Below are positions 32,038-63,380 of a stretch of DNA of 64,000 bases, piece after piece; the stretch's first letter is position 1; each line of letters starts with the position of its first letter. The notes beneath the pieces were generated by a model. The model was not told the origin of the DNA. It did not search any database and saw only the letters and a program-made list of their open reading frames with translations. A program made the translations under genes and the position numbers. This stretch comes from Antedon mediterranea (taxonomy: Eukaryota; Animalia; Echinodermata). Location: positions 27,004,912-27,068,911 of the forward strand of contig NC_092675.1 of NCBI RefSeq assembly GCF_964355755.1, read 5' to 3'.

Positions 32038-35000
32038 TTATTTATTACGTTGAAGCCTATCATAAGTAGTATCTTCTGGTGACGTATTTATCGATGTGTC
32101 CACGTAAGAGTACATGTCGTCATTTTGTGGTGACGTATCTATGTCCAGCTTTCCATATTCATTGCCGAAGTCATTATTCTGGGCTTCTTCATTGACCGCA
32201 CTGTAAATCTCACCATCGGGTTTTTCGTCAGTGTTTGTACCTGTTGTCGACTGCATGTTGGTAGAATTGGCATAGTAGGCTTCTGCTTTGTTTTCATATG
32301 GTATGTTTTCGTTGTCATTCCCTACCCTGTATGACTGCATGTCGGCAGCATTTATACTATCGTAAAATTCACCACCATTCTTAATTGAAAGAAATTCTGT
32401 GTTTCCATACGTTACGTCAGCATCTGTTTCTGTATCCGGTACCATGTCCGAAGCATTTAACGAATCGTAGGCTTCGCCGGAATCTTTGTGTTTCTTCTTA
32501 TTTGGTACGGCATACAAATTTGGCGGTACGGCATACACATTTGACGCCACGTCGTTTTGGTTTGCGGGTGGTGACATGGCTGCGTTCTCCGTACACTCGC
32601 CGGAATGTGTGTCAATAAGTACGCCATTAGAATATGAAACTCGGCCCCCTATTGAATAGAAGAGAACAAAACGTATACAATACTTCAAACTTGAAGGAAA
32701 CAATTTTAATAGATCTGGTATTAGACTAAGACTCCCTAAAATCAATGTATGTAGAACACGGAAGTCCTTTGTTGCAAATAGCATTAATATGTACAATTGT
32801 AACGTTCGTCGTAAATATTTGTTGTATTTTTTAAATTTAAATTTTAACAGTATTTTACAGAGCCTTTGGCGCTTTTAATAGTTTTTAAACAGTATTTTAA
32901 CATTTTAATAGTATTTTAACATTGCCATATGCAATTTTATATATTTTTGCTTTGTTGTTTTATTGTCTTAACTATGCCAAGCAAAACAAATTTCCGTTTT
33001 AAAGTGGACCAATAAAATGTCTTAAATCTTGAACAAATTATACAGATGGCGATCACATAGGTGGATTTAAACGAGAAGCCGAAATGTCTCCGGTTCTCAA
33101 CCAAGAAGAAAGGGATTGTTTGGGTGACATTCATAAATCCGCCGCTGGGGATTTTTTTTTTAAAGTTAATTGTTCTTGAATCTTTGAGATTTTTGTACTC
33201 GTAATTAGTTTGATAAAAGAATCAAAAAATGAAACCGAACACATTATTTAACCGCGTTTTAAAGAGGCACGTCAATTTAAAGTAACTTTTCTGATGGTTT
33301 CATAAGTGTACATGCGGCGATAGATTTTACCGTATCCTGTGTAGGCCCTACCAAAATGTACGTACCTTTGGCATAATTGCTATTTGAAGTATTTCGCTTT
33401 TTTTTTTTCCGTCGAATTAGAAATAAAGCAATGATTATTACCAGGATTATAACAACCAACGGTACACAAATAATAACCAATAAATCATCGCTAGCCTGTT
33501 TATTTCCGGAGGTAAAATTTGAATTTGGTGAAGACATATTCGTTGATGAAATCGTTTTGTCTGTGTTGATTGGGTGTGAATTTTCAGACGTCGACATTTC
33601 TGGTTGAGTATTGAACAAAGATGTTGTTGATACTGATCTGGGAGTCGATGTTGTCGGCACTTGGCATATTTTCGTTTTGTCTGTAAAAAGTTATAATTAT
33701 CTGAATTTTTAATTAAATTGATATAACAATATATAATTACAGAAAAATGGAGAGGTTGCTACTAATTAACAGTCTGAAGCCTAAATAAAAAACACAATTT
33801 TAAATTAAATTTAGATGTAATTACGAGTGGAATAATTTGTTATCAATTTTGCAGTAAGAAGGTGGACCTTTAAAATATCGCCGTTGCTAAAGATACGGTA
33901 CCGTATCCATGCTTTTAAAAACTAAAGATACGGTAAATATAGAGGGCGCTTCCGTTTGCTAAAAGTACGGTATAAAATTGCATTCCTAAAACTCGTACCT
34001 AAATATAAAACTCATTCCTAAATATAAAACTCGTTCCTAAATATTAAACTCCTTCCTAAATATTAAAAACCTAACCCTCTAAATAATCTCTCTTAAATTA
34101 AAAACTAAAAAAAAAAATAAAAAAAAGACGTCAAGAAGAGTATCGAACCCCCTACACCTTAAGCCAAAGCCTCATCACATGCCCACAAGGCTACACAGCC
34201 GGCTTACAGTAACCCAATGCAATAACCTATTTGATTAACATCCACATTACATAGCGCCCTCTATAATTACCGTACCTTTAGTTTTTAAAAGTATGGATAC
34301 GGTACCGTATCTTTAGACATAACGTTAAAATATATGTTCCTAATAATTCAGGAAAATGTAAATATTGAATATCAGCGGGTATGAGAGGTTATGAGACCAT
34401 ATTTTATTTGTACATCCTCCCATTAAGTAACAACTGTATGCTACTCTGGTCGTGAACATATGTCAGAAACGTTGCTTTTTCTCACCAGTAGATTCACAGA
34501 TAATGCTGTTTACCCTAACAGTTGTTGAGCATTCGATGATGTCACTAGTTACGGTATTCGATAATCCATATCTATCATGCACATTGATTATTTTACATCC
34601 CATGTTCTGCACATGGACATAAAATCGATTTTTATTCCCCACACTAAGAACATGTAAAACATTTTCTGTTAATTGATTGTATTCCTCAAGGCTATTTATG
34701 ACAGTTATGTTCCCGCCAACCAATTCACATTTCCGTTGAGCATCATCACACGATCTAGGTTTATTGTCCACTTTTATATACTTATAGCAGTTGGGGTGGC
34801 TGTATACATTGTCATCTACCAACAAAAAGTGGAAAATGTAATGACAATCACAAAATTAAAAAACCTATGCAAAACAAATGTCATTGTTTATTTTGATAAT
34901 GTTATGAAAAACTAAATCAATACATATATAACGTATTTTTTCATTATGTATAGGCTAATGCTATTAACACAGTATTGTAGGCCTGCATACCTGCACCATG

Positions 35001-35935
35001 CGTTTCTCCTTTCGGGTCTCTGTATTTCCATTCTCCATCTTTAGAGTATATCAGGTAGCAATTATTCACACCTGAACAATCAAAACCACTATAACAAAAC
35101 CAAACATACGTAACGTAACATTGAATAAGTGATGCATTTAAATTTAAACCTTGGTACTACAAGTAACGATTAATAGCTATTCGATTATCTTAATTTATAC
35201 AATATATACATATCAACGCATTTTATTTGACAGAACATTAAACTGCATAACTTCTGATCTACAAGTGAATTAGGCGAATACGGTGTATTAACGTAATTGA
35301 ATAAGCGTTAATATTTTCAAATGTTATATTTTTAGCGCAAATTTATAGAATGTTAAATGTATGGAATGCAATTGCCCATAAAACACATTCATTTCTAAAA
35401 CTGTTGTTGTGTTCTTATTTTTTATTTTATTATTTCTTTCCTCCTATTCCTCCTCTATATTCAATAGACAACTCCTTTTTTAGTTGTGTTTGATTTCGAA
35501 ATGTCGTATTGATACGGTACTTGTATGTATTTACTTTTTCCTCCATGAGTGTAGGCCTACTTACATTTCCTAACAATTGTATAAATATAATAAAAATAGT
35601 ACAATAATAACATCAAAAAATTTGAAATTGATGGTTCAGTTGAATCCGAAAACGATCACACTTATAGAACAACAGTTTTGAATTGTTTCTGATGTTGTTC
35701 TAAGGTTTGTTTCCCTAACCTAACACCTAGATATGACTCCTAGACTGCAAACTATAACACAGTGTTGCTCAGTACTTAGGCCTACATTTCTTCACTGATT
35801 CCGCTCTATTCGTGACAATGGCCTACATTATGTTAATACTTACTTAGGACATCTAGTTCCGGATATTCCCAATGTTAACAAGCATATTATTATTACCCCC
35901 GAGACACATTTCGGCCATTGTATAAACCTGTGCAT
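32038..35935 (-). CDS. Receptor A: type-I membrane protein with C-type-lectin-like domain, S/T stalk, TM and long tyrosine-rich cytoplasmic tail
   Basis: Exons 35844-35935 (MHRFIQWPKCVSGVIIICLLTLGISGTRCP), 34991-35088 (GFDCSGVNNCYLIY..GEWKY), 34486-34815 (CYKY..SCDDAQRKC..GGNITVINSLEEY..IICEST), 33366-33680 (stalk, TM LLVIICVPLVVIILVIIIALFLI, RRKKKKR) and 32038-32648 (tail). Phases 2,1,1,1 are consistent. Confidence 0.8.
33879..34324. mobile_element. Non-autonomous TIR element with 9-bp TSD (Mutator-like MITE) in a receptor A intron
   Basis: ~70-bp TIRs (ctaaagatacggtaccgtatccat..agagggcgct / agcgccctct..atggatacggtaccgtatctttag). TSD ttaaaatat at 33870-33878 and 34325-34333. Internal 20-bp tandem repeats. 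Confidence 0.8.
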
Positions 35936-36206
35936 ATTTAGGCCTACTGCTTCGTGCTCTTGTTTTTCATGGTATGGAACGACACGGAAGTTACTGCTTA
36001 ATTATAGGCCTACCACAAAAGTGAAATTTTAAGATTAGTAGGCCTATGTCCTTGTTTTGATATTAAATTACACGGATACATTTATGAATAGAAAAGTTGT
36101 TTTACAGACATTGTTCCGTGTTAAACGCAATATTAATTATTTCCAGTTTTCGCGCCACAAAGAGATCCTATCTAAGAATGGTTAATGGATTTTCTGTCGT
36201 ACTTTT

Positions 36207-36758
36207 AGATGTATTGTCCCTTTGACTAATTCCAAAAAAATAAAAAATAACAGATTTCAAAAAAAGGTGGGTCATTTTGAAGTATCATAACAGTTATTAA
36301 CTATCACCAAAAATTTGTTTAAAAAAAAATCATTTAACTGAAATACAGACGTTTTTTTGTTAAAAAAATAACATTGACTTCCAGTCAAAGTTTTCAATCA
36401 AAACATATCCCATAATGAAACGCGCTTGTTTGGCTACTCTGTATGCATAATCATAAAACTTCCTCACGATCTGTGTAAAAATACCTTCTCAACCGTGACG
36501 AGTTGTAAACAATCCTAATTAGCATATGCATAATGCGTAGTACTCGTGGTTTGAAATCTTTGTTTACTTTTGCTCGCGACGATTTTCCAGACGAAATGTA
36601 ATCGGCAAATCAATGTACCTGTTAATTACGTAAACTTGTTGTTTTTGGCTCGAATTTTCGAATTAAAGTGAATAACTTTAATATTACTTGGATATGGCCA
36701 ATTTAAATTTAGAATATTTTGACCTTCATTTTTTTGTGTTTCAAGGGACAATACATCT
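36207..36758. mobile_element. Non-autonomous TIR element at a TTAA site (Kolobok-like MITE)
   Basis: TIR agatgtattgtccct..tga / tcaagggacaatacatct followed by ttaa. The paralogous empty site acttttag|ttaaacaaatc is at ~50371. Confidence 0.75.
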
Positions 36759-38584
36759 TTAAACAAATCATGGTATATATTCTTAAATCGCCATGCATGA
36801 TTTTATAAAATTTACTGAATCATGTTTTTAGTAGGAATTCAAACATTGAAGGTCATGGATTCGCGTCCCATTACGTGCAAATATTTAAAAGTACAATCAC
36901 GTTTAGCATTAAACATCTTTCACTAAAGAGGTAGGCCTACGTGTCACTAGCTAAAAGTTCATTCTTATACTTACTTGTAATACATCATAAATGTATTAAT
37001 TTCCAAATAGAAATAAAAACAACCTTCAATGACGAGCTAAGATAAATATTATACATAATAAATTTGTCAAAGAATATTGTATTACTCAACCAAATGCACT
37101 GTATAGTTATTGATATAAGGTTTAACTATTCCTCATAATAAACATGGTAAAAATGAAGTGATTTAGCGAGTTTTTCTAAAGAATACATTTCCATCCATTT
37201 CTTCCGTACCAGTTTGTATTTTACACTAGGTATTGCACTAAAATGCTATCTATAATTTCCAAATCTATGGATGAATAAAGCGATGTCTATGTCTATGTCT
37301 ATCAAATCTTAAAAAGTGTAACCATAGTTATTCAGCTTTTGAATGTTAGTTTATGCAAGTTAGATAAGTGTAAATAAATTCATGGTATTAAATAATGATG
37401 CTACAAATAATCATGCTACAACATAGTCATGCTACAACATAGTCATGCTACAACATAATGGATTTTGATTTTTTTTAATGGCGCATTTCGAGTGTACACA
37501 TAATAACACATTAACTTCGAATGGCATGTAATGCGGCTAAGCCAAGTAGTTTAATGTTGATTTAACATTTCCTTGTATTATCACTAAGATCGTTGGAAGG
37601 CAAACAACATAGGGATATTCCCTACAACTATTTATAGAATGGACACTGACAGTAGTTTGTTTAAACTAATTCTTCATTACTAGTTAGGCCTACCAGTATA
37701 ATCAATATCACTCAATAATCTTTTATTTCAGCATTTAACACCATAGAAATACATATTAATATACATAAATATTTTATAGCATAAAAAAACATATAAAGTC
37801 ATATAAAGATACAGACATAATTATACAAAAGTAAAATTCCAAGTATTAGAAATATTATACTCTCAGTATCATCATCCATGTAATATAGCGTAGCAAAATG
37901 ATGTTTAGTCGCCACACCTAGACAAATGATATACAAATAAAAGCTAATCAGAACTGTTTTATACAAAATGTTAACGACGGGTTAAAGTGCAATAGCTAAG
38001 ATCTTCATCTATATTTACTGATAATATGGAAACGCGATTTCCAGACAAGGAAAAACGTTATGTAGGCAATAGAAAAGGTTTTCAATTAAAATCTCCATCA
38101 TAGTGTGCTTTGCGTAGTTTAGGAATGTTCCATTGTCTACTTCTAATATTAGGGCGTGGGGTGGGAAAGAGTTGGGGGGGGGGGGCTGTAGGTGGTGTAT
38201 GCAATGGTGTATGCCGCTTCTGACAAGCAAAACAAAAGTCACCCCTTTTGCTGTTACAACAGTTTAAGAAGAAGGGACGACAACACCAGTTGTGCAAATT
38301 AAATTAAAAATATTCCAATAATTAGCCAATTAGTCCAATCTGTTCCATATTTTTTTGTTTTTATTATTATTAATAATAGTGTTATTATTATTATTATTAT
38401 TTTGTATTAAGGAAACATAGCACTGCTTACTTACTTAGCTGTGTGCGTTTAGACGAACTCCAATGTTTTGCTATTGGTCTAAAAGTAAAATTTGTAAGTA
38501 CAGGTTTATGGTTGGTTCCGGGGTTTTAAATTTGCATTGGCCAGTACAAAATCAGATTAGTTGCTATTTTTAATTCTGAAAGTT

Positions 38585-38690
38585 ACAAGGTCATATACAT
38601 TGGCTGGCCCAGTCGCGCGCGCAAATTTGAGTTAGTGTTTACCTACCGACCGACCGACCGACCGACATAGTGAGCTATAGAGTCGCGTTT
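38585..38690 (+). mobile_element. DINE-1/Helentron-associated-like short element
   Basis: acaaggtcatatac start, (ccga)n microsatellite and tatagagtcgcg end. Copies at 44958, 51977 and 58086. Confidence 0.5.
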
Positions 38691-39098
38691 GATCTTTTCT
38701 CTTTTTTTAGTGTAAGATACAATTTCCTGTCATCAAGTACAGTTTCATTTGTTCATTCTGCTTCCAGCCCCGGAAATTTCTAAACATAGTTCCACCATAA
38801 ACCAACATAGTTCCACCTCCCTAAGATATGCACCCATACTCGTATCAGTCTATGCTACTACTAATCCTTGCTGCTATATCTTTGGTTTAATTACGTTGTG
38901 TATTTACATATCAAAATAACATCATTGTTTTTATGATTTGGATTGATCTTAATTATTATATACTGTATCTTAAAAATTAGATGAAACTGATCAATCTCAT
39001 AAATAAATTAAGCAAGTAATTTATGGAATATCTTCTTTTGAAGTAAAATATTTGAACATGTTTAAAAGAGTACAGTCAGTTACTATGTTACAAGTTTA

Positions 39099-42000
39099 TT
39101 ATTTATTACGTTGAAGCCGATCATACGTAGAATCTTCTGGTGACGTGTTTATCGATGTGTCCACGTAAGAGTACATGCCGTCATTTTGTGGTGAAGTATC
39201 TATGTCCAGCTTTCCATATTCATTGCCGGAGTCATTATTCTGAGCTTCTTCATTGACCGCACTGTAAATGTCACCATCGGGTTTTTCGTCAGTGTTTGTA
39301 TCTGTTGTCGACTGCATGTTGGTAGAATTAGCGTAATAAGCTTCTGTTGTTGTGTTTTCATATGTTTTGATCTCGTTATTATGCTTTTCCTTTCCCGAGT
39401 CCATTTCGGCAGCATTTATGCAATCGTACATCTCACCGCCAGTCTGCTGTTCGTCTGTGTTCGCATACGTTACGTCACCATTATTATCTGTTGCTTTATC
39501 CGGTGGCATGTCCGAAGCAGTTAACGAATCGTAAGCTTCGCTAGAATCTTGATCCTTCCGTTTCTTTTTATTTGGTACGGCATAGAGGGCCATTGCCACA
39601 TTGTTTAGATTTGCTGGTGAGGACGTGGTTTCTTCCATGTCATGTTGGGTATGTTCTGTGTCTTTAAAAAGAGCAGCGTTCATTGGTGTTTCTGGTGGGG
39701 ACGCTATCTCGTCTGAGAGTGTGGGGATAAGTACTCCATCACCATATGAAAAACCTGCTAAAATAAACAACAAACATAAATAAAGGATATGATTGAAAAA
39801 CTTTAAAAAGCACGGTTGCTGTTTATCTAGGTTTCTGGCGATGGCAAAGAAGGGACATATTCCAGGAAATATATCGGTAGAAAATTGTAACAATTTATCT
39901 TTAAAAAACTTAGAACATAAAATATTAATAGACATAAAATAGCATAAAATGAAAAATAAAGGATATCAGACCTAACCATACTAGAAGAGAAAGTTACACC
40001 TTTCTAACATTACTAACAAAATGTTACCCTGTGTATCAAACTTCACGCACCTTTATGTACCATCTGTCGTTTTTTCTTTTTCCGTCGAATGAGAAAGAAA
40101 GCAATGATTACAATCAAGATTATAACCACGACTAATGGCACACAAATAGCAACCACTAAATTAGTACTTGATTGTTCAGATGCATTTGGTTGAGATATTA
40201 TGTTATTCGTTGATGAATCTGTATAGCCGCCTGTCGATGTTACTGATGACGTTTCCAGTAATTCTGACACGGAGGTTATTGCTGTGGCCGGTAGTGGGCA
40301 TATTTCAGGAGATATATCTGTAGAAATTTCAAATATATTATATTTTCTCAGATGAAACTTTGAATTTAATTGCAAATGTATTAAAGATTATATATGAAGA
40401 TTATTTAAATCAGACTTTGAATAGGTTATTTTGTAGTTTTCATAAACACTTTCACTTTCGTAGAAAAAAAACGGAAAAAAATAATGTTTTCACTTGTAAA
40501 ATAACATAATAAATGGTTAAATTCAACAAATAAATAATTGGTTGGAAGCCAATTTGAGTATTTCTTGCTTTGAAGAAAGTTTTCCAGGTAAATTTTTTTC
40601 AGATCCAATTTTTGCTCAAAGTGGATAACTATTATGTTATATTAAAATGGAGTATACAAACAAAAAACGTTAAAAAATTATTTTTTCATCTTTAAGAATA
40701 GCAGTTAAATAAAATTATGATCTAATGATATTAATAATGCTAAATCAAACAAAACAGGAATTATATCACAGCTTCTATGTGATGCAATTCAATTAGGCCT
40801 ACTAGATTCCATTTGTAAAAATAATTTATAAACGAAAGATCAAAGTATTATATCAATTATAGACCAAGCTATATATACATTTCCACTGGACAACCGTCCG
40901 GTTTTAGAAGATGAAAAACACACAAATTACTTAATGGTTAATAGCCAAAAGTAGATAGAAGAGAATCGACAATCCATTATTGTTTTTTTGATTATAATAA
41001 TAATAACTTTATTTGGATTAACGCTTTTACAACGCGGCACAAACCAAATGATAGTACATCCTAAATATAAAAATTAAAACGTTATAAAACAATACAATCA
41101 AAATAAACAAGAAAAATATAATATATTGAACATTTACAGTAAATAACGTAAAAGCTATGTCTTTTTAATATAACTTTTACAGAAATATAAAAATATATCA
41201 TACAGAAGATTAAACTTCGGGTAATTATTAAAGTAGTTAGAGTTGCCAAGAATTAAATTGAAAACTAAATCACCATAAATAAAAAAAAAGAGACCAATAA
41301 TTAAACAAAACATTATGAGACCAAGGCACTTTCGAGATTAATAACTCTATTAAAACTATTAAACTAAACTGGCTCTGATAGCATTCAGACATTTACACAT
41401 AAACACGAAGTGAATTAGATCTTCGGATCCTTTATTATACATAATGGACATGTGCTATCATTGTCCTGTTGCCATTCTGCAACTTTTCTATTGAGATGTA
41501 ATGTATTTGAGAGGCTTGAATTTCAAACTTTATTATTTTATTATAAATACTGATTTTCTGCAGGCGTATTTGATTTCTATACGTCAACAATATTTCAAAT
41601 AATACTTAAAAAAAATAATAATTTAATGCATAATAGATATAGTTTCTGACTTGTTTTACTCTTTTTTTGTACTGGACATTACCATCGGCATTTAATGAAT
41701 ACATCAAAACACACATTTTACAATGTGATCTTCAATTTGATAAAAGTACTGACGGAACGGTTGTCACAATATAATAATTTACAATTAAATTTTGATTGTC
41801 TGCAATCAATTTTTATCACAGACAATCAAAATTTAATAGAAAATTCCTATATTGTTGCCATACTGTGTTATTAGTGTTATTTATTTAATAATAGAAATAA
41901 ATCCTATACCAATACCATAAACTCATAGTGCCAGGTTTGTTAATTATTTTAAGAGGATTTTTTTCATTGCCTCGAATAGACTACACGGGAGGCTTGTACA

Positions 42001-44414
42001 AATGATATGCCATTGGTTATGTATTATGTGTACTCAGTGTATTTAAATATTGTTAATACTCACCAGTAGATTCACATATAATGGTGTTTACGTCATCAGT
42101 TGCTGAACAGTCCATGTTTTCACTGTCTTTGGTATTTGAAGAGAAAGCACCATCATTCACATCGATTATTGCGCATCCCTTGTTAAGATTTCTCTTGGGT
42201 AGGCGTAGACCTATTCCTGATTCTACATGGACATTAAACTTACTACTAGACGGGGCACTAAGAACATGTAAAACTTGATCTGTTAATTGTTTGTATTCCT
42301 CGTCGCTATTTATGACAGTAATGTTCCCGCCAATCATTTCACATTCACGTTGAGCATCATCACATGATCTTTGTTTATTGTCCACTTTTATAAATTTATA
42401 GCAGTTGGGGTGGCTGTATACGGATTCGCCTGCAAAGGATAAATCAATTGTACTGATGATGACATAGTGAATGTAAGAACATAATTAGTATTCAATTTCA
42501 CGAGTATAATTTATTACTTACATGACTCGTTCTCAATCTGTCATTACTGTTTTTTTTTTTTTACCTTTTTGTCTGTTGGACGAAAATATTGAATTGAATT
42601 GAAACACTTTTTGAACATTTGTTTGATTTAGATATTCAAATAATATTTATATTTATTATGGTATCAAATAATTTGATGTCTGATCACAATCACTATTTAC
42701 TGGTCATTACTTTTGTAAACATTTGTCTATTATTAAATTATACAAATAAATATTTCACTAATAACACTGTCTCAAACATTGTTGTTTTTAAAATTAATTA
42801 GTGTTCCATGACCTTCTCATCAAAATTAATGTCTCTCATTGTTGTGCTATGTCAACATAATGTCAATGACGGCGAAATGTCCCCAATAATGGGGATAGCT
42901 ATGCAAACAAGTAATTATAATTGATATATGAAACAATATTTTGATATTAGAATAACATTAATACTAAAATTATACATTTATTATACTTTTTTAAATTATT
43001 ATTACTTAATATACTATTACTAGTAATAAAAGTATTTTGTGTTAGACGTTCCTCACGGTTTTAATAATTATTAAGATCAATGATGTAACAATATGTTAAA
43101 ATAATAATTATTATTAATTTTTTTTAAACATATATATTTATATAAAAAAAGCTACACTGTAATCCAAATACAAACAATTGTTTAACCTGTATCATACGTT
43201 GTTTCTTCTGGATCTTGGTATTTCCACTCTCCATTTTCAGGGTATATAAGGTAGCACTTATCCACACCTGAACAATTAAAACCACTATAACACAAAAGTA
43301 TAACAGATAATAATTCAAAAAAACTAAACGGATGACAGCGCCGTGAAACGAAACATGTGTTGACGAGGTCGACCTCGTTAGTGTTGACGGGATGCGCCTC
43401 AATAATATGTTCTCATTTTGCTTATCTATTCTCTATACAGCATTATGCACTAATTAAATTTTATTTTACTTTATTTAACAGAGTTACGCAACATAAAAAA
43501 CAACGATAATTAATAATTAAAAATAAAAGATTTATAATGTAGCACAATTAAAAAGTGTCAAAGAAACGTATTTCCTCCATTGAATCATGTCCCAACACTA
43601 TTTTGTAGTGTTAAAACTAGTTGTGTTTTATTTATGTGGCTTACGGTTTTTAATTTTCTACTGCTATAGTATTTCATTAAATCTTCAAATACGTATTACG
43701 AGGGTTACTTTCATACATATTAATAATACATACAGGTACAGTAGTATAGTAATTTTTTAATAGTAGTTTTTTAATTATATCGGCTACTATCTGTTATAGG
43801 CCTATTTTGATTAAATTAAAGCTGTCAAATAATGGTGATTGACTATTGACCTTAAGAGTCAGTGATTCAGTTGAATGAATTTATTTCAAATTCAGGGGCC
43901 AATTATCGTTAACTTTGGTGGGATAGTAGGTCACCAAATTACCGGGTAACTAAAAACAAACGTCTGAAAGCGGGCCCATAGAGGGCGTAAAATGTGTAAA
44001 AATATTATAATAATACGATTAGCATTTAGAATTTAATCAATCAGATTATGTAGAAGAGGAGGAGAGTATGTATTAGGTGATGCTGGAATAACACTAGAAT
44101 AACAAAATATTGTTCATCGTTTGTTTTTATACCGTCCGTGCTGTGAATACAACATACTATATATGAATACACATTATGCTTAGGCCTACTGATAGATCTA
44201 CCACTGGTGACAGTAAATTCCGCCGTTCTATTAAATTTGAAGACATCACTGTATGCGATATTAAACAATTCGATAGTTAGTGTTTTTATCATACTTATGT
44301 AAGGAACAATGAATACATTACTTACTCAGGACATTGTGCAGCCTCTGCTACTTTCCATTTTAACATGCATATTACTACTGAAACACATTTTAGCCATTGT
44401 ATAACCCTATGCAT
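39099..44414 (-). CDS. Receptor B: CTLD-like/TM/long tyrosine-rich tail paralog
   Basis: Exons 44326-44414 (MHRVIQWLKCVSVVICMLKWKVAEAAQCP), 43187-43284, 42064-42429 (CTLD-like), 40051-40317 (stalk+TM) and 39099-39754 (tail ending STYDRLQRNK). All GT-AG and in phase. Confidence 0.8.
40990..41830 (-). mobile_element. 5'-truncated LINE (L1/Tx1-type) 3' fragment in a receptor B intron
   Basis: Degenerate zf-RVT-like coding TCPLCNKGSEDLIHFVFMC and an aataaa + (TTA)n tail on the minus strand. Confidence 0.6.
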
Positions 44415-46589: not shown

Positions 46590-49500
46590 TTATGAAATCA
46601 AACCATACACTTCATTTTTAACGACAGTATCATGGTACATTTCACTCTGGTCAATTGATGGAACAGCAGCACCATGCTTATATGAACCAGTCTGGAGTTT
46701 ATCTTGTTTAATAGAGTTACCGTCAACCTTAGAATCTACAAAGATAAAATTAACAAATTAAAATTGACCACCATAGTTGCTCATCTGTATAGTTTTGTAA
46801 CCAAACCAACATGTATAGCCAATCCGACCACATTTATGCGAGTAGTGTACATATCTTTATGGTCAATTGTATCTAGATTGCTCATCATATCCATATTCGG
46901 TAATGCAGCATCCATGTGTTTCACATGTATTGCCTAGTGTTTCTGGTGGTGACGCTATCTTGTCTGGGTGTGTGGGTATGAATGCTCCATTGCCATATGA
47001 AAATAAATTAAAAAACAATGATACAAATCATATGACGTTGCTGATGCTTATCTGGGATTATGTTGATTGCAATTGGCATTATTCCAGAATATATATCGGA
47101 AGAAAACATATAAATATTTTTTTTTTATTTAATCATTTGGTCAAAAACAGTTAGAAAATATATGAGAACAAGCTTACAAGCAATGTACTAAAAATGGGAA
47201 TTTGAAAAGCTATCAACCTTCATAAAAAGCAGATCAAGGATTACCATTCCAATACAGTTAGGCCAATTAAAAAATGCATACACTAATAACACGTTTATTT
47301 GTTATTTTGTAAACTGTTAAAGGTGACGTGAAGTTAACCAGCGAAAAACAACAACAATTAAACAGGTTTATTTCTTGAGCAAAATATTATGTTATTTTCC
47401 ATAACACTTGATAGTTTGTTAATTCTCCTCAGTAGCGTAGAATTTACCGTCAATAATTGTAGTCTTAGTTGCAAAGAAATTTACACTTAAAATACGGTAG
47501 AAAATTGTAATAATTAAATAAGTATTAAGCTTTTAAAAAAATTGAAACTTAGCACATAAATTATAAATAGACAAAGCATAAAATGAAAGAAAGATAAGAA
47601 AACATTATTAATACAATATCAGACCTAACCATTCAATAAGAGAAAGTTACGCCTCTTTAGTTAATATTACTAACAAATGTTACCATGTGTATCAAACTTT
47701 ACGCACCTTTTTGTATCATCTGTCGTTGTTTCTTTTTCCGTCGAATGAGAAAGAAAGCAATGATTACAATCAAGATTATAACCACGACTAACGGCACACA
47801 AATAGCAACGACTAAATTAGTACGTGATTGTTTAGATACATTTGGTTGAGATATTATGTTATTCGTTGATGAATCTGTATAGTCGCCTGTCGACGTTACT
47901 GATGACGCTTTCAACAAAGATGTCGTTGATACTGATCTGGGGGTCGTTGGTGACCCAACTGGGCATAGTCCAGGATGTATATCTGTAGAGTGGGAACAAT
48001 CCACATTATTTTATGATATCATAAACACTGCCCTTAAACAGATATGATCGTTTAAAATATCAATTTATACCGCCCCTCTGCACAGCCCATTTTGGGAACA
48101 TTGTCGAGCCAACGCATATAGACTGAGTTTAGTCTGGTGGTTTTTCTGTTTGTTTTTTGTCAATTATACTTTTATAGTGTCTGCTGTCGGTTTAATAATG
48201 ATTTAATTTGTCACAAAATGTCGGTAAATATCCATTTAGGCCATACACATTATTTTGTAGGTGGTTAAGTTGTCTACTTTCTTGAAGATTGTTTTTATAC
48301 TCACCAGTGGATTCACAGATAATGGTGTTTATCAAATTAGTTGTTGAGCAGTCCATGTTTTCACTGTTTACGTCATGCGAATTCAAAATTCCATCATACA
48401 CATCGATTATTGCGCATCCCTTCTTTAGCCTTTTCTTCAGGGTTAGTTCTGATTCCACATGGACATTAAACTTACTACCCGACCCGACACTAAGAACATC
48501 TAAAACGCTATCTGTTAATTGATCGTATTCCTCAACACTATTTATGAGAGTGATGTTTCCACCAAACCTTTCACATTCCTGTTGAGCATCAATACACGAT
48601 CTTTTCTTGCTCACTCTTATAAATTTATAGCAGTTGGGGTTATTGTATGCGGGTCCGTCATCTGCAAAAGATACATAAAGTATATATCGAATGTACAGTA
48701 TTACTAATGATTATCTTAAATACTGTGTAATATTTACTTTGTGAATATTTATTTGTGTTCACATTTAAGTCAATACACGATCTTTTTTATTACTCACTTT
48801 TATACATTTATAGTGGTTAAGGTTGTTATATACATCTCCACCTGCTCAAAAAACGTAACTGACTTAGAAGTTTCTGCATATTTGAATGACGTATATAATA
48901 TTTATTTATTTAACAACATCTTTATACATGATTACACAATCCGGTAAAATAAAACCTGTTTTGCATTGTGGTCCTGTCTTAAATAATAATAAATAATAAT
49001 AAATCAGGAAAAACACATTTTTAGTTTTGTTTAAAAAAAAATAAGATCGATATCTAGCTTTGAATGAAGCAATATTGTTGGGGAATATTTAATTTCAGTT
49101 GGTAGGTTATTTCATATTTTAGTGCCTGCAACTTTGAACTTTGAACTTGTTTTATTATTACATAACTATAATCCAAGAATAATTCAACTTAATAAGGCAT
49201 GCCTCATTTATTGAAATTGTTATATTATTTTATCCAATGAATATATCATCATTTCGCGGATATTAATTTTATGGTTTTGTTTATATTATCACTATTATTA
49301 TACTGCTATTTTGACCTAGTTGATTGTTTCTATTGTTTTTTATTTTTATCTTAACCAAGCAATGTGAAGAACATACTTGCATCCCTCGTTTCTCCATTTG
49401 GCTTCTTGTATTTCCATCTCCCATTCACAGGGTATATCAGATAGCAATTCTTACCCGAACACTCAAAACCACTAAAACAAACCAAACGTAACGTAACATT

Positions 49501-52492: not shown

Positions 52493-55400
52493 TTATTTAT
52501 TACGTTGAAGCCGATCATACGTAGAATCTTCTGGTGACGTATTTATTGATGTGTCCACAAAAGAGTACATGCCGTCATTTTGTGGTGAAGTATCTATGTC
52601 CAGCTTTCCATATTCATTGCCGAAGTCATTATTATGAGCTTCTTCATTGGCCGCACTGTAAATGTCACCATCGGGTTTTTCGTCAGTGTTTGTATCTGTT
52701 GTCGACTGCATGTTGGTAGAATTAGCGTAATAAGCTTCTGTTGTTGTGTTTTCATATGTTTTGTTCTCGTTATTATGCTTTTCCTTGCCCGAGTTCAGTT
52801 CGGCAGCATTTATGCAATCATACATCTCACCACCAGTCTGTAGTTCGTCTGTGTTTACATACGTTACGTCACCATTATTATCTGTTGCTTTATCCGGTGG
52901 CATGTCCGAAGCAGTTAACGAATCGTAAGCTTCGCTAGAATCTTCATCCTTGTGTTTCTTTTTATTTGGTACGGCATAGAGGGCCATTGCCACATTGTTT
53001 GGATTTGCTGGTGAGGACGTGGCTGCTTCCATGTCATGTTGGGTATGTTCTGTGCCTTTGAAAAGAGCAGCGTTCATTGGTGTTTCTGGTGGTGACGTTA
53101 TCTCGTCTGAGTGTGTGGGGATAAGTACTCCATCACCATATGAAAAACCTGCTAAAATAAACAACAAACATAAATAAAGGATATGATTGAAAAACTTATA
53201 AAAGCACGGTTGCTGTTTATCTAGGTTTCTGGCGAAGGCAAAGAAGGGACATATTCCAGGAAATATATCGGTAGAAAATTGTAACAATTTATCTTTAAAA
53301 AACTTAGAACATAAAGTATTAATAGACATAAAATAGCATAAAATGAAAAATAAAGGATATCAGACCTAACCATATTAGAAGAGAAAGTTACACCTTTCTA
53401 ACATTACTAACAAAATGTTACCCTGTGTATCAAACTTTACGCACCTTTATGTACCATCTGTCGTTTTTTCTTTTTCCGTCGAATGAGAAAGAAAGCAATG
53501 ATTACAATCAAGATTATAACCACGACTAATGGCACACAAATAGCAACCACTAAATTAGTACTTGATTGTTCAGATGCATTTGGTTGAGATATTATGTTAT
53601 TCGTTGATGAATCTGTATAGCCGCCTGTCGACGTTACTGATGACGTTTCCAGTAATTCTGACACGGAGGTTATTGCTGTGGCCGGTAGTGGGCATATTTC
53701 AGGAGATATATCTGTAGAAATTTCAAATATATTATATTTTCTCAGATGAAACTTGGAATTTAATTGCAAATGTATTAAAGATTTATATATGAAGATTATT
53801 TAAATCAGACTTTGAATAGGTTATTTTATAGTTTTCATAAACACAAAATAAAAAAAAATATGTTTTCACTTATAAAATAACATAATAAATGGTTAAATTC
53901 AACAAATAAATCATTGGTTGGAAGCCAATTTGAGTATTTCTTGCTTTAAATAAAGCTTTCCAGGTAAATTTTTTTTCAGATCTATACAAACAAAAAACTT
54001 TAAACAATTATTTTTTCATCTTTAAGAATAGCAGTTCAATAAAATTATGATCTAATGATATTAATAATGCTAAATCAAACAAATTCAATTAGGCCTACTA
54101 GATTCCATTTGTAAAAATAATTTATAAACGAAAGATCAAAGTATTATATCAAGTATACACCAAGCTATATACATTTCCACTGGACAACCGCCCGGTTTTA
54201 GAACATGAAAAACACACAAAATACTTAATATTAATGGCCAAAAGTAGATAGAAGAGAATCGACAATTCATTATTGTTTTTTTTATTATAATAATGATAAT
54301 AATAACTTTATTTGGATTAACGCTTTTACAACGCGGCACAAACCAAATGATAGTGTATCCTAAATATACAAATTAAAACATTATCAAAAGTACAATATAA
54401 AACAATACAATCAAAATAAACAAGAAAAATATAATATATTGAACATTTACAGTAAATAACGTAAAAGCTATGTCTTTTTAATATAACTTTTACAGAAATA
54501 TAAAAATATATCATACAGAAGATTAAATTTCGGGTCATTATTAAAGTAGTTAGAGTTGCCAAGAATTAAATTGAAAACTAAATCACCATGAATAAAAAAA
54601 GAGACCAATAATTAAACAAAACATTATGAGACCAAGGCACTTTCGAGATTAATAACTCTATTAAAACTATTAAACTAAACTGGCTCTGATAGCATTCAGA
54701 CATTTACACATAAACACGAAGTGAATTAGATCTTCAGATCCTTTATTACATAATGGACATGTGCTATCATTGTCCTGTTGCCATTTTGCAACTTTTCTAT
54801 TGAGAGGTAATGTATTTTTGAGGACTTGAATTCCAAACTTTATTATTTTATTATAAATACTGATTTTCTGCAGGCGTATTTGATTTCTATACGTCAACAA
54901 TATTTCAAATAATACTTTAAAAAATAATAACTTAATGCATAATATATATAGTTTCTGACTTGTTTTACTCTTTTTTGTACTGGACATTACCATCGGCATT
55001 TAATGAATACATCAAAACACACATTTTACAATGTCATTTTGATAAAAGTACTGACGGAACGGTTGTCACACAATATTATAATAATTTAGTTTTACAATTA
55101 CATTTTGATTGTCTGCAATCAATTTTATCACAGACAATCAAAATTTAATCGAAAATTCTTATATTGTTGCCACACTGTATTATTACAGGGAAGAGTTAAA
55201 TTACAATTACCAATACCAGGTTTGTTAATTTTTTTGCAACATCATTGATTCGAATAGACTATACGGGTGGCTTGTGCAAATTAGATTTCATTAAATAGGT
55301 ATAGTGTACTCAATGTAGTAAAATGCTGTCTATACTCACCAGTAGATTCACAGATAATGGTGTTTATCTCACCAGTTGTTGTGCAGTTGGTGTTTTCGCT

Positions 55401-57540
55401 TTTTTTGGTATTATAATGTAAAGTTCCATCATGCACATTGATTATTGCGCATCCCTTGTTGATATTTCTTTTGAGTCGTTCTGATTCTACATGGACATTA
55501 AACGTACTAATAGAATAGCTACTAAGAACATTTAAAACTTGATCTGTCAATTGATCATATTCCTCAACGCTATTTATAACCGTGATATTCCCGCCAACCA
55601 TTTCACATTCACGTTGGGCATCAATACACGATCTAGGTTTTTTGTCCACTTTTATAAATTTATAGCAGTTGGGGTTGCTGTATACGGGTCCGCCTGCAAA
55701 TAAATCAATTGTACTGATGACGAAATAGTGAATGTAAGAAAATAATTAGTATTCAATTTCACGATTAGAATGTCTTTTATGACTTGTTCTCAATCAGTCA
55801 TTACTGTTTTTGTTTTTACTTTTAAATATAAGTGAATTGAAACACATTTTGTCTATAAAATTATATCAATTCATATTTTTACTAATAACACGTTGTCTCA
55901 CTCATCATGATTTTATTATAATTTAAATATGAAACAATAACATTAATACTATACTAATACATTTAATATACTATTACTAGTAGGCTAAATATATTTAATA
56001 ATTACAAAGATAAAAGTAGATAGTAGTTAGACGTTCCTCATTGTTTTAATAATTATTTAGATCAATGATGGAACAATTGTTTAAATATTAATTATAATAT
56101 TAATTTGATTAAACACATCTATATCTTATATATAAAAGTCAAACTTGAATCCAATAATGGTGACAATTGTTTAACCTCTATTAAACTTCGGCCCGCGTCG
56201 TCCCTTTTTGTATTTCCATTCTCCATCTTCAGGGTATATCAGGTAGCAATGTATTGGGTGAAATAACACTAGAATAACAAATATATTGTTCATCGCTTGT
56301 TTTTATACATTCCGTGCTGTGAATACAATACTATACAGATATTGACTGCTTAGAGGTTAAATATAAGATTTGACATCCCCGAGGGAATGATATTAAGTTC
56401 GAGGGAATAGGGCCTATATATTTCCCGAAGCGCCAGCTGAGGGAAATATATATTCCACGAGAACTTAATATCATTCCCGAGGGGATGTCAAATCTTATAT
56501 TTAACCGATATAAAAGGCAATATCTGTTATATTATATAGCCAAGAACAAGTCTGCTGGGTTGGGTGAAGCTAGACTAGGCCTAGGCCTACTATAGTATTT
56601 GTATTGTTGTATTTAAACAAGCCTGCCTAGAAAGACACCTTACCTTGCGAAGAATAATATACAGATAATTACTAATTAATGATTCCTTGGCAATAAAATA
56701 TTCACTTAGGCCTAGGTCGTTTAAATTAACAGAAGAATTTCCATCAATAAGCCTATTAAAAATAATAATAATTATAATCAGGTAGGCCGAATAAACAATT
56801 CGTCTTCTTCTCGATCTTCTTCGAGGAGCCGAATCACCGGATGTTCAGCGCGTACTAGTTACTAGGTTACTACCGTGAGTATTGACCAATCACAAACGGT
56901 GTTTCATCACATTTAGGGTGGACTTATAACAAATGAGGGCGCTATGTATGCATAGTTTAAATAGTTTAGAAGATTAATTTCTTCAAGCAACTTTCGTGGC
57001 GCAACGGTTGAAGCGTTGTCTTGCGATGGAGTGACAATTCCACCCGAGTTCAAGATCGAGTTGATGACTTTTGTTTATTTATCGGCAATGCGAGTGTTGG
57101 CACACGAAAATTACACAGTCAATATCATCGTACTCGAGAATCTATATGTTTAATGACAGGGGACACGATAATTACGCGAAAATTACACAGTCAATATCAT
57201 CGTTCTCGAGGATATATACGATTTACGATCCTCGCAGCGGTAGTCATGTGATGCAGTTTCAACCAATCACGTTAGCGTATTTACATAGGCTATGTAATAT
57301 AACATATTATTCATATATTTACTGATAGATCTACCACTGGTGAAAAATAACATAGTGAATTCCGCCGTAGTCTATATAAAGTTATCACTGTATGCGATAG
57401 TTTGGTTTTATCATACTTATGTAAGGAACATGAACAATGAATACTTACTTAGGACATGATTGTTCAGCCTCTGCCATTTTCCATTTTAACATGCATATTA
57501 CTACTGAAACACATATTAGCCATTGTATAACCCTAAGCAT
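52493..57540 (-). CDS. Receptor D: recent duplicate of B with rearranged exon 2 (possible pseudogene or alternative start at 56293)
   Basis: Exons 57449-57540 (MLRVIQWLICVSVVICMLKWKMAEAEQSCP), ~56176-56293, 55340-55693 (CTLD-like), 53445-53711 (TM exon, protein identical to B) and 52493-53148 (tail). Exon 1 (phase 2) does not join exon 2 in frame at any visible AG, but ATG 56293 gives an open MNNIFVILVLFHPIHCYLIY. Confidence 0.65.
54285..55150 (-). mobile_element. LINE 3' fragment (duplicate) in a receptor D intron
   Basis: ORF 54670-54999 KNTLPLNRKVAKWQQDNDSTCPLCNKGSEDLIHFVFMCKC has the CxxC..E...H....C zinc knuckle typical of the non-LTR ORF2 C-terminus. Confidence 0.65.
56336..57303. mobile_element. 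Non-autonomous element with a long terminal hairpin and permuted termini (Crypton/tyrosine-recombinase-like)
   Basis: Absent from paralog B (~44160). It has a ~190-bp hairpin at 56336-56527. The internal caatatctgttatattatatagcc is the reverse complement of the joined right end + left end (ggctatgtaatataa|cagatattg). Confidence 0.55.
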
Positions 57541-59194: not shown

Positions 59195-61430
59195 TAATGT
59201 ACTGCACCTTTTCTGTTATTGATTTTATAAATAATAATCATCGTCTGAACATTATTTACAAACTATTTTAGTCACCTCAATACTGCACCTTTTCTGTTAT
59301 TGATTTCATAAATAATAAGCATCGTCTGAACATTATTTACAGATTATTTTAGTCACCTCAATACTGCACTTTTCTGGTATTGATTTTATAAATAATAAGC
59401 ATCGTCTGAACTTTATTTACAGACTATTTTTAGCCACCTCAATACTGCATTTTCTCGGTTATTAATTTTATAAATAATAAGCATCGCCTGAACATTATTT
59501 ACAAACTATATTTAGCCACCTCAATACTGCACCTTTTCTGTTATTGATTTTATAAATAATAATAATCGTCTGGACATTATTTATAGACAATTTTTAGCCA
59601 CCTCAATACTGCATTTTCTCTATTATTAATTTTATAAATAATAATCATCGTCTGAACATTATTTACAGACTATTTTTAGCCACCTCAATACTGCATTTTC
59701 TCTGTTATTAATTTTATAAATAATAATCATCGTCTGAACATTATTTACAGACTATTTTTAGCCACCTCAATACTGCATTTTCTCTGTTATTAATTTCATA
59801 AATAATAATCATCGTCTGAACATTATTTACAGACTATTTTTAGCCACCTCAATACTGCATTTTCTCTGTTATTAATTTTATAAATAATAATCATCGTCTG
59901 AACATTATTTACAGACTATTTTTAGCCACCTCAATACTGCATTTTCTCTGTTATTAATTTTATAAATAATAAGCATAGCCTGAACATTATTTACAAACTA
60001 TATTTAGCCACCTCAATACTGCACCTTTTCTGTTATTGATTTTATAAATAATAATCATCGCCTGAACATTATTTACAGACTATGTTTAACCCCCTCAATA
60101 ATGCACTTTTCCTGTTATTAATTTTATAAATAATAAGCATCGTCTGAACATTATTTACAAATTATATTTAGCCACCTCAATACTGCACCTTTTCTGTTAT
60201 TAATTTTATAAATAATAATCATCGTCTGAACATTATTTACAGACTATTTTTAGCCACCTCAATACTGCATTTTCTCTGTTATTAATTTTATAAATAATAA
60301 GCATAGCCTGAACATTATTTACAAACTATATTTAGCCACCTCAATACTGCACCTTTTCTGTTATTGATTTTATAAATAATAATCATCGCCTGAACATTAT
60401 TTACAGACTATGTTTAACCCCCTCAATAATGCACTTTTCCTGTTATTAATTTTATAAATAATAAGCATCGTCTGAACATTATTTACAAATTATATTTAGC
60501 CACCTCAATACTGCACCTTTTCTGTTATTAATTTTATAAATAATAAGCATCGCCTGAACATTATTTACAAACTATATTTAGCCACCTCAATACTGCACCT
60601 TTTCTGTTATTGATTTTATAAATAATAATAATCGTCTGGACATTATTTATAGACAATTTTTAGCCACCTCAATACTGCATTTTCTCTATTATTAATTTTA
60701 TAAATAATAATCATCGTCTGAACATTATTTACAGACTATTTTTAGCCACCTCAATACTGCATTTTCTCTGTTATTAATTTTATAAATAATAATCATCGTC
60801 TGAACATTATTTACAGACTATTTTTAGCCACCTCAATACTGCATTTTCTCTGTTATTAATTTCATAAATAATAATCATCGTCTGAACATTATTTACAGAC
60901 TATTTTTAGCCACCTCAATACTGCATTTTCTCTGTTATTAATTTTATAAATAATAATCATCGTCTGAACATTATTTACAGACTATTTTTAGCCACCTCAA
61001 TACTGCATTTTCTCTGTTATTAATTTTATAAATAATAAGCATAGCCTGAACATTATTTACAAACTATATTTAGCCACCTCAATACTGCACCTTTTCTGTT
61101 ATTGATTTTATAAATAATAATCATCGCCTGAACATTATTTACAGACTATGTTTAACCCCCTCAATAATGCACTTTTCCTGTTATTAATTTTATAAATAAT
61201 AAGCATCGTCTGAACATTATTTACAAATTATATTTAGCCACCTCAATACTGCACCTTTTCTGTTATTAATTTTATATATAATAAGCATCGTCTGAACATT
61301 TCACAGACTGTTTTCAGCCACCTCAATACTGCACTTTTCTGTTATTAATTTTATAAATAATAAGCATCGCCTGAACATTTTACAGACTATTTTTAGCCAC
61401 CTCAACACTGTATTTTTCTGGTATTAATTA
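59195..61430. repeat. ~82-bp AT-rich satellite, ~27 copies with higher-order structure
   Basis: Unit gccacctcaatactgcattttctctgttattaattttataaataataatcatcgtctgaacattatttacagactatttta at 59679, 59761, 59843. Variant units recur at 328- and 1066-bp periods. Confidence 0.95.
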
Positions 61431-61813
61431 CATAAATATTAAATCATTTATATTTATTAATTGGCATAAATATTTTTGACATTTTATTAAAATTTAAAAA
61501 AGCAATAGAATAAACTAATTTTTTAAAGAATTAAATTAAAAATACTTGTCTCGTTAGGTCCCTAAATACACATAAATAAAATCACAAGCAAAAGAAACAT
61601 CAATATCATACGTATTATGTGTATGTTAATGTTACATTGCTCTTTGCACTTAATTACAATGAAAATTGATATAAATTAGTATAATTAAATTTTATATAAA
61701 ATACTTAGGATAGGGCCTATTCAGGTAACGATTTTGTAGCTAACATGCCACTAATGCATTTTATGATGAAATTTAGGCTTAGGACATACAGATAGTTAAT
61801 ATTTGCAACATCT

Positions 61814-61959
61814 TTATGAAATCAAACCATACACTTCATTTTTAACGACAGTATCATGGTACAATTCACTCTGGTCAATTGATGGAATAGCAGCACCATG
61901 CTTATATGAACCAGTCTGGAGTTTATCTTGTTTAATAGAGTTACCGTCAACCTTAGAAT
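61814..61959 (-). CDS. Receptor E: last exon of a C-type (short-tail) paralog; upstream exons presumably lie beyond the window
   Basis: 146-nt copy of the C last exon (DSKVDG..ELYHDTVVKNEVYGLIS*) with an intact acceptor and only two conservative changes (V>I, M>L). Confidence 0.5.
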
Positions 61960-63380
61960 CTACAAAGATAAAATTAACAAATTAAAATTGACCACCATAG
62001 TTGCTCATCTGTATAGTTTTGTAACCAAACCAACATGTGGCCAATCCGACCACATTTATGCGAGTAGTGAACATATCTTTATGGTCAATTGTATCTAGAT
62101 TTCTCATCATATGCATATTCGGTAATGCAGCATCCGTGTGTTTCACATGTATTGCCTAGTGTTTCTAGTCTGGGTGTGTGGGGATTAATGCTCCATTACC
62201 ATATGAAAATAAATTTAAAACAATGATACAAATCATAAGACGTTGCTGATGCTTATCTGGGATTATGTTGATTGCAAAGGGCATTATTCCAGAATATATA
62301 TCTGAAGAAAACATATAATTATTATTTATCTTTTTCATTTATTCATTTGGTCAAAAACAATTAGAAAATGTATGAGAACCAGATTTCAAGCAATCTATTA
62401 GAAATGGGAGTTTAAAACCTTAATTAAAAACAGATCAAAGATTAACATTCGAATACAGTTAGGCCAATTCAAAAATGCATACAATAATAACACGTTTATT
62501 TTTCGCGCCGCGGCTCTAGCCAGTTATGTCCCAGGAGGACACATTCATTAATAAGCTGTTTCATAGCGGTAGCTTTAGTATCTAAGACTGACAGTTTTGT
62601 GAATTTGGAAACTCGACTATAATTTATAGGTAGCTGCTGGACCCAAAAAACGTCTGGGAGAAGAGAGTCTATATGAAAGCCTTTGCTGATAATACAGTAT
62701 TATTGAGATGTAGACGGAAATCTGTAAAATATTGATCAATAAATAATAACTTCGTTTTTGCTGTCAACCAGGCCGGTATTATAATAAGTCACTGTCAAAT
62801 AATCATTCGATAATGGTCAAAACTTTATTTTGGCTCTGTCAACATAAAGGGAGGTATTTACAATGACTTTCTTTGACTTTCAATCTAGGCCAATGTTATA
62901 ATAATACGCCGTCAGATATTAAATCATTGAAACAGTCCTCGTAAATTTTTTGTTGGTTATCAGATGCCGTGGGGGGTCCAATCAATTATCGTCAGAAGGT
63001 GAACAATCAGTCTACAGCAGATTATTAGGAACGCCTGCTCCATTAATTAATCCAGAAAAAGGTTTGAACATTATCTATTTGTTTATTAGCCTTCTCCTAA
63101 CACAATTATATTTTCTTTAAAAAAAAAGGTTTTATAAGTGGTTTCAACATTTATGATAGTAATGTCACAGTTCTGTGTCTGGACGCAAGTTCATAGACCT
63201 ACTAGTTATATTATTCATATTAACTGATACTTACTCTTCATTTACCGTAAAGTTCAGTTTTAATGAAATATATAATATAAATTGGCTTCGTAACAATTAA
63301 TTAGTTTTGAAAAGGTTAGTTTTTTGGTGATAGGTGAAAATTACATGTAACTTCGTAAACAATTTATTTTTTGTGTATAA

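Follow-up and report, generated by a model that had tools for sequence, protein, structure and literature searches.

What do the tandemly repeated receptor-like genes on the minus strand of contig NC_092675.1 of the crinoid Antedon mediterranea encode, and what could such proteins do for the animal? A sequence-only reading of the window analysed here (64,000 nt, positions 27,004,912 to 27,068,911) had described five head-to-tail paralogs of C-type-lectin-like receptors with tyrosine-rich tails, and had proposed that they form a diversifying recognition system. We located paralogous blocks at 31.9–62.5 kb by comparing the window with itself, and built the gene models from splice sites read in the sequence. 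The five minus-strand paralogs, A to E, do form a head-to-tail tandem array at that place (Table 1), and they represent an undescribed crinoid receptor family, expressed in the case of A, with a variant C-type-lectin-like domain, abbreviated CTLD, and with shuffling of heads and tails. There is roughly an even chance that the array encodes variable immune-recognition receptors that carry CTLD heads without the long loop and signal by tail tyrosines.

Genes A, B and C each splice from five exons into an open frame, and their introns have GT-AG ends and the phases 2, 1, 1, 1. Their exons encode, in order, a signal-like sequence ending in CP, a short cysteine-containing segment, a CTLD-like domain, a Ser/Thr stalk followed by the transmembrane (TM) segment and a basic stop-transfer sequence, and the tail, so that the CTLD precedes a single TM segment, as expected of the type-I topology suggested earlier. 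The single five-exon plan claimed for A to D is likewise shared, but C ends in a short last exon instead of a long tail. The products of A and B are letter-for-letter identical to the A. mediterranea proteins P0051 (XP_071953057.1) and P0064 (XP_071952658.1), respectively, and that of C matches P0002 (XP_071953846.1), with the same ending. The downstream frame of D equals P0003 (XP_071954258.1), a database model that starts inside exon 3 and has no signal peptide, while E is represented in the window by its tail exon only, which is 100% identical to residues 269-316, the end of the 316-aa full-length protein P0053 (XP_071952426.1). Every database record met for the array genes is labelled 'uncharacterized', and we found no description of the family in the literature on crinoid and echinoderm lectins, immune receptors and genomes, where subscription papers and genome-paper supplements could mention it; the family has no known name, as the first reading had supposed.

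The Pfam model Lectin_C matches three of the four single exons 3 weakly and under the cut-off (E 0.01-0.025; 0.025 for A). Folding the ectodomain of C with a 26-row family alignment gave a confident model, with 148 residues at a predicted local distance difference test score (pLDDT) of at least 90, and residues 11-160 at 85-97 per ten-residue block. When this model was compared with 48,161 solved chains, the best Z was 8.7, at root-mean-square deviations of 3.2-3.7 over 107-119 aligned positions; 12 chains reached Z of at least 8, and all 50 listed rows are, judged by title, C-type-lectin-fold proteins or chains that contain one. Foldseek returned nothing at E<=0.001 in the PDB or viral libraries, and the PDB rows that it listed are lectin-fold. 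These Z values are middling in size, but the sequence, the Atlas features and the cysteine pattern agree with a CTLD, so that the ectodomain is predicted to have the double-loop fold with alpha1, alpha2 and beta1-beta5. Exon 3 folded alone gave a poor model (pLDDT 51), which was set aside, and a two-copy complex prediction, made without an alignment, scored 0.00.

The family departs from canonical Ca2+-dependent C-type lectins in the long loop, the EPN/QPD motifs and the WIGL/WND motifs. In 25 family rows, 8-19 residues separate beta2 from the beta3 cysteine, compared with 24-65 at 23 WIGL-type sites of ordinary CTLDs among the matches; the comparison is rough, since the cysteine that comes next does not correspond in every case. 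None of the 29 ectodomains contains EPN, QPD or EPD (the Ca2+ site II motif) or a WIGL-type W[ILV]G, and the string WND occurs in two of them (P0009 and P0058) and in none of A to E; beta2 of the family reads F-N/Y-V-H-V. Exon 2 contributes three predicted strands ahead of the first helix, forming an extra N-terminal hairpin, and therefore two CY strands would precede alpha1. At ten positions a cysteine is retained by 72-100% of the family rows, which suggests five disulfides in the predicted structure. The two conserved CTLD disulfides (alpha1-beta5, and beta3 to the loop before beta5) are probably among them, with pairing assigned by position, since their cysteines are kept in 24 of 24 (C75), 26 of 26 (C161), 24 of 25 (C128) and 18 of 25 rows (C150).

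A profile of the four exons 3 searched against 1.84 billion representatives returned 50 matches. The family accounts for 21 of them, 20 matching across most of the domain and one being a truncated isoform, and all 21 are named A. mediterranea or Anneissia japonica. The remaining 29 cover the first-helix region only, and among the ten of these that were identified further, most are proteins of the multi-CTLD or mannose-receptor-like kind from various animals, and one has no name. No member was added by a search among proteins of 61-216 residues (0 of 359 candidates), and a search with the 26-row alignment recovered at least eight known members among crowded candidates. Counted from database proteins, the family comprises 11 Antedon gene models, 10 of them on one contig, and 18 Anneissia loci, several on shared scaffolds. 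This range is a lower bound, since only two annotated crinoid genomes are visible. The family is crinoid-restricted in the collections searched, where remote relatives outside crinoids could have been missed. In a tree of 29 ectodomain rows (P0060 left out; P0012 shortened and ungrouped), a supported expanded clade (95/94) holds 10 Antedon and 12 Anneissia rows; its sub-branches, with supports of 86/75 (Antedon) and 86/92 (Anneissia), are not firm. The species label changes twice on the tree, compared with 8.9 times in shuffles. With tandem copies, a pseudogene (D) and lineage-specific clades, this is a birth-and-death family, as the earlier reading had held. Lineage restriction would also fit receptors for gamete recognition, whose heads evolve rapidly through sperm-egg co-evolution; the sperm REJ receptors of echinoids bear CTLDs, and reproductive proteins evolve fast. 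However, the gamete receptors known to us do not resemble a multi-copy array that combines two types of tail with numerous SH2-type motifs, and we consider this role very unlikely.

The first reading had mentioned a possibly broken copy in the array. D is broken: it lacks 811 bp that are present in B (43257-44067), with the deletion point at 56248, so that the exon-2 acceptor and the 5' part of that exon are gone. Where intron 1 of D was scanned (57300-56200), none of the AGs gives an open frame, and skipping from exon 1 to exon 3 runs into a stop. Relic exons, also mentioned in the first reading, are present: the last intron of C and that of E each contain the start of a long-tail exon that has lost its acceptor, and the block 46079-47300 matches 61303-62501 at 90%. 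An 82-bp satellite at 59200-61447 (27.5 copies, 90% matches) has expanded from a segment of which the duplicated block's other copy has just one unit, at 46069-46214. The possibility that the copies are uncollapsed haplotypes was rejected, because they lie one behind the other and differ by 10-25% in most blocks, and because unique DNA contigs over genes A, B and C have similar depths, 10-14, in the eight pieces listed from run X1.

The recent 13.4-kb duplication claimed before is real in its offset, which is 13,394 bp between B and D, but it is not uniformly recent: the block is mosaic, with identities that range over 75-99%. B and D share a near-identical tract of stalk, TM segment, tail and flanking introns, inside which they differ at 109 of 3330 positions (3.3%), compared with 117 of 679 (17.2%) beyond its breakpoint (chi-square 207; the highest among 200 shuffles was 18). 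A single base out of 267 differs in exon 4, whereas the synonymous divergence (dS) of exon 3 is 0.33, like that of any paralog pair. At position 39718 in B, all four runs show the D-type letter only, owing either to an unmapped short B contig or to an error in the window letter. C is a mosaic as well, with an A-like exon 1 (22 of 29 residues shared with A, compared with 16 of 29 with B), an exon 4 whose 3' half is within 3-7% of B, and a last exon that is 98% identical to that of E, a pattern expected of a chimera from unequal crossing-over. The genes do not qualify as paired receptors, since their heads differ (exon 3 is 55-74% identical among A to E) and their tails are shared. One alternative is that the array serves the recognition of self and non-self by allele-matched binding. 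We see a slim prospect for that role here, as the predicted fold differs from the immunoglobulin (Ig) and fibronectin type III (Fn3)-like folds of Alr, crinoids are solitary, and we know of no natural fusion reaction in them. What speaks for it is that the clustered family, the pseudogene, the ectodomain-tail recombination and the tyrosine motifs parallel Hydractinia Alr (PMC9546547) and Botryllus fester/FcoR (10.1101/2024.10.16.618699).

None of the listed runs is recorded as RNA; we treated run X5 as RNA because of its GT-AG joints. Two of the ten joints listed for the gene A region match predicted introns exactly (33680/34486 and 35088/35844, minus-strand GT-AG), so that this run shows splicing for two out of the four introns of A, which answers for gene A the earlier call for spliced transcripts. 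Two more X5 contigs end at 33365 and 32650, the limits of intron 4, without a listed joint, and the exon 2-3 joint of A is absent among the X5 joints listed. Six of the 30 X5 bins in this region have no cover, and all six are intronic. Contigs of run X1 cross the same boundaries, with no differences in the eight pieces listed. The X5 joint 32285/32482 was rejected as a splice, since it arises from a B-type tail aligned to A.

The A-type transcript of X5, which its exon 3-4 joint links to A, differs from A of the window at 14 of 221 positions in exon 3 (6.3%), 9 of 297 in exon 4 and 6 of 441 in the tail (1.4%), and at 0 of 302, apart from one gap, in the contig holding the 3' untranslated region. 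The tail count drops contig 32071-32239, whose single difference is the B/D letter (7 of 580 if it is kept), and the head count drops differences in exon 2 and 5' exon 3 that lie in 3-5 piled contigs, which are likely paralogs. Divergence between individuals, which the sequence-only reading had proposed to look for, is therefore concentrated in the lectin exon relative to the tail in the one second individual compared (p 0.001). Eleven of the 14 exon-3 differences are listed, with nine bases changing eight residues and two being silent. Five of these 11 differences equal a paralog's base (p 0.018), which fits either conversion or retained ancestry. X5 cover is low over exon 3 of B and depth dips over exon 3 of A; neither was used as evidence.

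The tails are of two types, with about 220-230 residues and 12-16 tyrosines in A, B and D, and about 60 residues and three tyrosines in C and E. A, B and D carry an ITAM-like triplet, YxxL-x11-YxxV-x12-YxxL, at the tail end (ITAM, immunoreceptor tyrosine-based activation motif), which arises in 0.4% (A) and 0.2% (B) of 5000 shuffles; in the same number of shuffles, Yxx[LIV] averages 1.8 for A (p 0.003) and 1.3 for B (p 0.0004), compared with six observed. The last two motifs of the triplet are kept in P0009 and in P0004 and P0008 of Anneissia, with spacers of 13, 19 and 9. Between A and Anneissia P0004, tyrosines are kept at 11 of 13 aligned positions, compared with 63 of 178 other residues (p 0.0007), and tyrosine retention is also significant between A and P0009 (p 0.003). 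Over the last 81 codons, the proportions of nonsynonymous (pN) and synonymous (pS) differences between A and B are 0.027 and 0.165, compared with 0.238 and 0.365 in the front part, which points to constraint together with some homogenisation. By pattern match only, the inhibitory (ITIM) or switch (ITSM) counterparts of the ITAM occur once at the C-terminus of B and of D (S at -2) and, as an ITSM-type match, in A, and there is no such match in C or E. The family probably signals through its tail tyrosines. An Atlas search with the tail gave one mollusc 'hypothetical' cluster at 0.90, which is a lead only. Pfam matches to TMEM154, SKG6, Orf78 and RIFIN covered stalk and TM segment only and were rejected as compositional.

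Other members of the family have tails of other kinds. P0017 and P0018 have tails of 430-490 residues with 8-12 YxxP motifs, a third type recalling Crk/Nck-docking scaffolds. Those of P0026 and P0060 from Anneissia are built of a unit of about 100 residues that is repeated in tandem and contains several YxxL motifs every time, and the tail of P0026 has 31 tyrosines and four strict ITAM matches. The 609-aa chain of Anneissia P0001 contains the head-TM-tail unit twice and is probably a fusion of two gene models.

Whether immune recognition is the job of this family is, in our judgement, an evenly balanced question, and several results weigh against it. Conserved tyrosines are in line with the multi-tyrosine signalling tails of the first reading, and A, B and D have the ITIM/ITSM-type pattern matches, but the strict ITAM, Yxx[LI]-x6-12-Yxx[LI], occurs in none of the five window genes and in 4 of 29 family proteins (P0004, P0019, P0026 and P0060). 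The middle motif of the triplet ends in V, A, B and D have no strict hemITAM (half of an ITAM), and tyrosine retention in A is not significant relative to B (p 0.36) or P0008 (p 0.064). No TM segment contains K, R, D or E, and therefore no adaptor-coupled activating form is evident. The X5 comparison comes from unphased contigs of one run and one second individual, its A-type sequence may be an unassembled A-like paralog instead of an allele, exon 3 does not differ significantly from exon 4 (p 0.085), and nine replacement to two silent changes are indistinguishable from neutral given 170.5 and 48.5 sites. Among paralogs, the ratio of nonsynonymous to synonymous divergence (dN/dS) of exon 3 is 0.45-0.85, below 1 in all six pairs, and the only two pairs that differ from 1 at p<0.05 do so downwards. 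Finally, P0017 and P0018 form a cross-species pair (support 99/96) that resembles a conserved ortholog.

Some of these results suit other explanations. The array could be undergoing near-neutral turnover, in which a dispensable membrane protein is multiplied by unequal crossing-over, heads drift under relaxed constraint and the mosaic is a by-product of conversion. This would account for dN/dS values of 0.45-0.91 over exons 2 and 3 that are mostly indistinct from 1, for the death of D, and for the lower silent divergence at the tail end, which conversion also produces. However, the retention of the ten cysteine positions, the preservation of the tail triplet across two crinoid families, the spliced transcript and the 29 gene models in two species argue against such drift, which we regard as distinctly unlikely. 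Alternatively, the proteins might be adhesion, scavenging or tissue-repair receptors of the CD302, CD93 or Draper kind, which use the same tyrosines with endogenous ligands and whose expansion is secondary. The type-I single-CTLD plan with a Ser/Thr stalk, CD93 and CD302 among the weak sequence and fold matches, paralog dN/dS below 1, and the P0017/P0018 pair with its YxxP-rich tails are in line with this explanation, whereas species-specific expansions, broken and mosaic copies and high exon-3 divergence are unexpected for conserved housekeeping receptors; overall we deem it unlikely.

If the receptors do serve in immune recognition, the head would bind ligands without depending on calcium, whether protein-like or of another kind, and these would sit on microbes, on parasites or on damaged cells, and clustering of the receptors would let a Src-family kinase phosphorylate the tail. 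By analogy with Draper, the C-terminal triplet would then dock a tandem-SH2 kinase of the Syk/Shark type, and YxN and YxxP sites would dock adaptors, while the short-tailed C and E might be weak versions, decoys or receptors with another wiring. The copies would be multiplied through unequal crossing-over and gene conversion, which would also place old divergent heads on shared stalk-tail cassettes, with some copies dying during array turnover. A bolder version, to which we give appreciably less than an even chance, is a crinoid system resembling the natural killer (NK) complex, in which the CTLD, redesigned by removal of the long loop and addition of the cysteine hairpin, reads variable protein ligands of parasites or symbionts, deeply divergent head alleles are under balancing selection, and new receptors arise as heads are recombined onto long signalling tails or short decoy tails, the former ending in an ITAM variant with three tyrosines. 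Among living echinoderms, crinoids form the sister group of the rest, their immunity is almost unstudied, and Pfam does not detect this family at its curated cut-off. If confirmed, it would be an independent origin, within deuterostomes, of diversified lectin-fold receptors wired to phosphotyrosine signalling, as well as a new structural CTLD variant and a clear example of heads and tails being shuffled, for which the breakpoint is mapped.

Table 1. Features of the receptor array, in window positions
Feature	Position	Strand	Details
Gene A, intact, long tail, 481 aa	32038..35935	-	exons 35935-35844, 35088-34991, 34815-34486, 33680-33366, 32648-32038
Gene A, last 81 tail codons, triplet YxxL-x11-YxxV-x12-YxxL	32038..32283	-	
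Gene A, exons 2-3, N-terminal cysteine hairpin and CTLD core without long loop (predicted)	34486..35088	-	
B/D near-identical tract: stalk, TM, tail, flanking introns	38400..41860	.	breakpoint in intron 3 at ~41860 (D ~55172)
Gene B, intact, long tail, 491 aa	39099..44414	-	exons 44414-44326, 43284-43187, 42429-42064, 40317-40051, 39754-39099
Gene C, intact, short tail, 325 aa	46590..50091	-	exons 50091-49988, 49471-49377, 48661-48305, 47982-47707, 46735-46590
Relic start of long-tail exon in last intron of C, acceptor AG lost	46930..47020	-	blastn 39686-39773 vs 46937-47018, 80%
Gene D, broken	52493..57540	-	exons 3-5 still open: 55693-55340, 53711-53445, 53148-52493
Gene E, last (short-tail) exon; remaining exons past window end	61814..61959	-	
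Relic start of long-tail exon in last intron of E, approximate limits	62160..62215	-	read from sequence

Two other genes precede the array in the window. At ~2700-13500 on the minus strand lies a multi-exon ADAMTS-like gene (Pfam ADAMTS_CR_2, E 2e-4, under the cut-off), with thrombospondin-like and propeptide-like exons recognized by eye. An EF-hand gene (EF-hand_1, E 8e-12), presumably resembling EFCAB7, occupies ~17000-29500 on the plus strand and is convergent with gene A. Its region contains two adjacent tandem arrays, at 19023-20148 (55 bp x 20.5, 98%) and 20184-21901 (96 bp x 17.9, 94%), the second of which yields long spurious open frames and continues into an exon-like stretch near 21900. 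Inverted-repeat elements resembling miniature inverted-repeat transposable elements are found at 33887-34316, 56328-56535 and 63380-63707; in the first, 33887-33950 and 34253-34316 are 95% complementary to each other, and both have very deep cover in all four runs.

By analogy, the array would work like known diversified recognition clusters, yet it is a member of none of them by the tests run. The oyster proteins CgCLec-HTM and CgCLec-TM1 are likewise invertebrate transmembrane CTLD proteins with a tail tyrosine motif; they carry a hemITAM, signal via Syk, and bind lipopolysaccharide and bacteria by the carbohydrate-recognition domain (PMC13027682). The crinoid proteins differ from them in a domain without the long loop and EPN/QPD, in the type of tail motif, in the 12-16 tail tyrosines and in the shuffled array, and no oyster protein is among the 21 family-level matches. 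Botryllus fester/FcoR resemble the array in clustering, in similar C-terminal parts with divergent ectodomains, in intergenic recombination and in acidic YxxI/L/V core motifs, but have a proven allorecognition context, canonical ITIMs plus hemITAMs and more than 37 loci (10.1101/2024.10.16.618699); no CTLD homology between them and the crinoid family is shown here. The Alr proteins of Hydractinia are also tandem type-I receptors with pseudogenes, tyrosine-motif tails and domains invisible to standard searches, but they have Ig and Fn3-like folds, canonical ITAMs and demonstrated allele-specific homophilic binding (PMC9546547). The GRC/PTC2 clusters of Biomphalaria also encode single-pass transmembrane proteins that are lineage-specific and diverge strongly, with copy differences and with silent divergence exceeding replacement divergence, but they have a genetic link to schistosome resistance; the main text of the paper mentions neither C-type lectin nor tyrosine (PMC7494358).

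Among vertebrate proteins, the group V CTLDs of the NK complex (Ly49, NKG2D, KLRG1 and Dectin-1) are clustered as well and lack calcium motifs (PMC7618208). They appear among the fold matches at Z 7-8.2 with 10-22% identity, but are type II and dimeric, with the long loop present and short tails. Vertebrate type-I single-CTLD proteins are conserved low-copy genes, and those of the CD302/Bimlec type show weak sequence similarity to the family (E 0.02). Since such proteins (CD302/Bimlec of group XV, and group VIII) have a signal peptide, one CTLD, a stalk, a TM segment and a tail, the topology alone is not new (PMC514892). Drosophila Draper differs in its EGF-repeat ectodomain, its NPxY motif, its status as a single conserved gene and an ITAM ending in I/L in both halves (PMC6219719). 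However, its tail comes close to the long tails of the array, with 13 tyrosines, multisite Src phosphorylation and docking of Shark, which the ITAM recruits after phosphorylation by Src, and its ITAM tyrosines Y934 and Y949 are 15 apart, the same spacing as that of the first two tyrosines of the crinoid triplet (PMC6219719).

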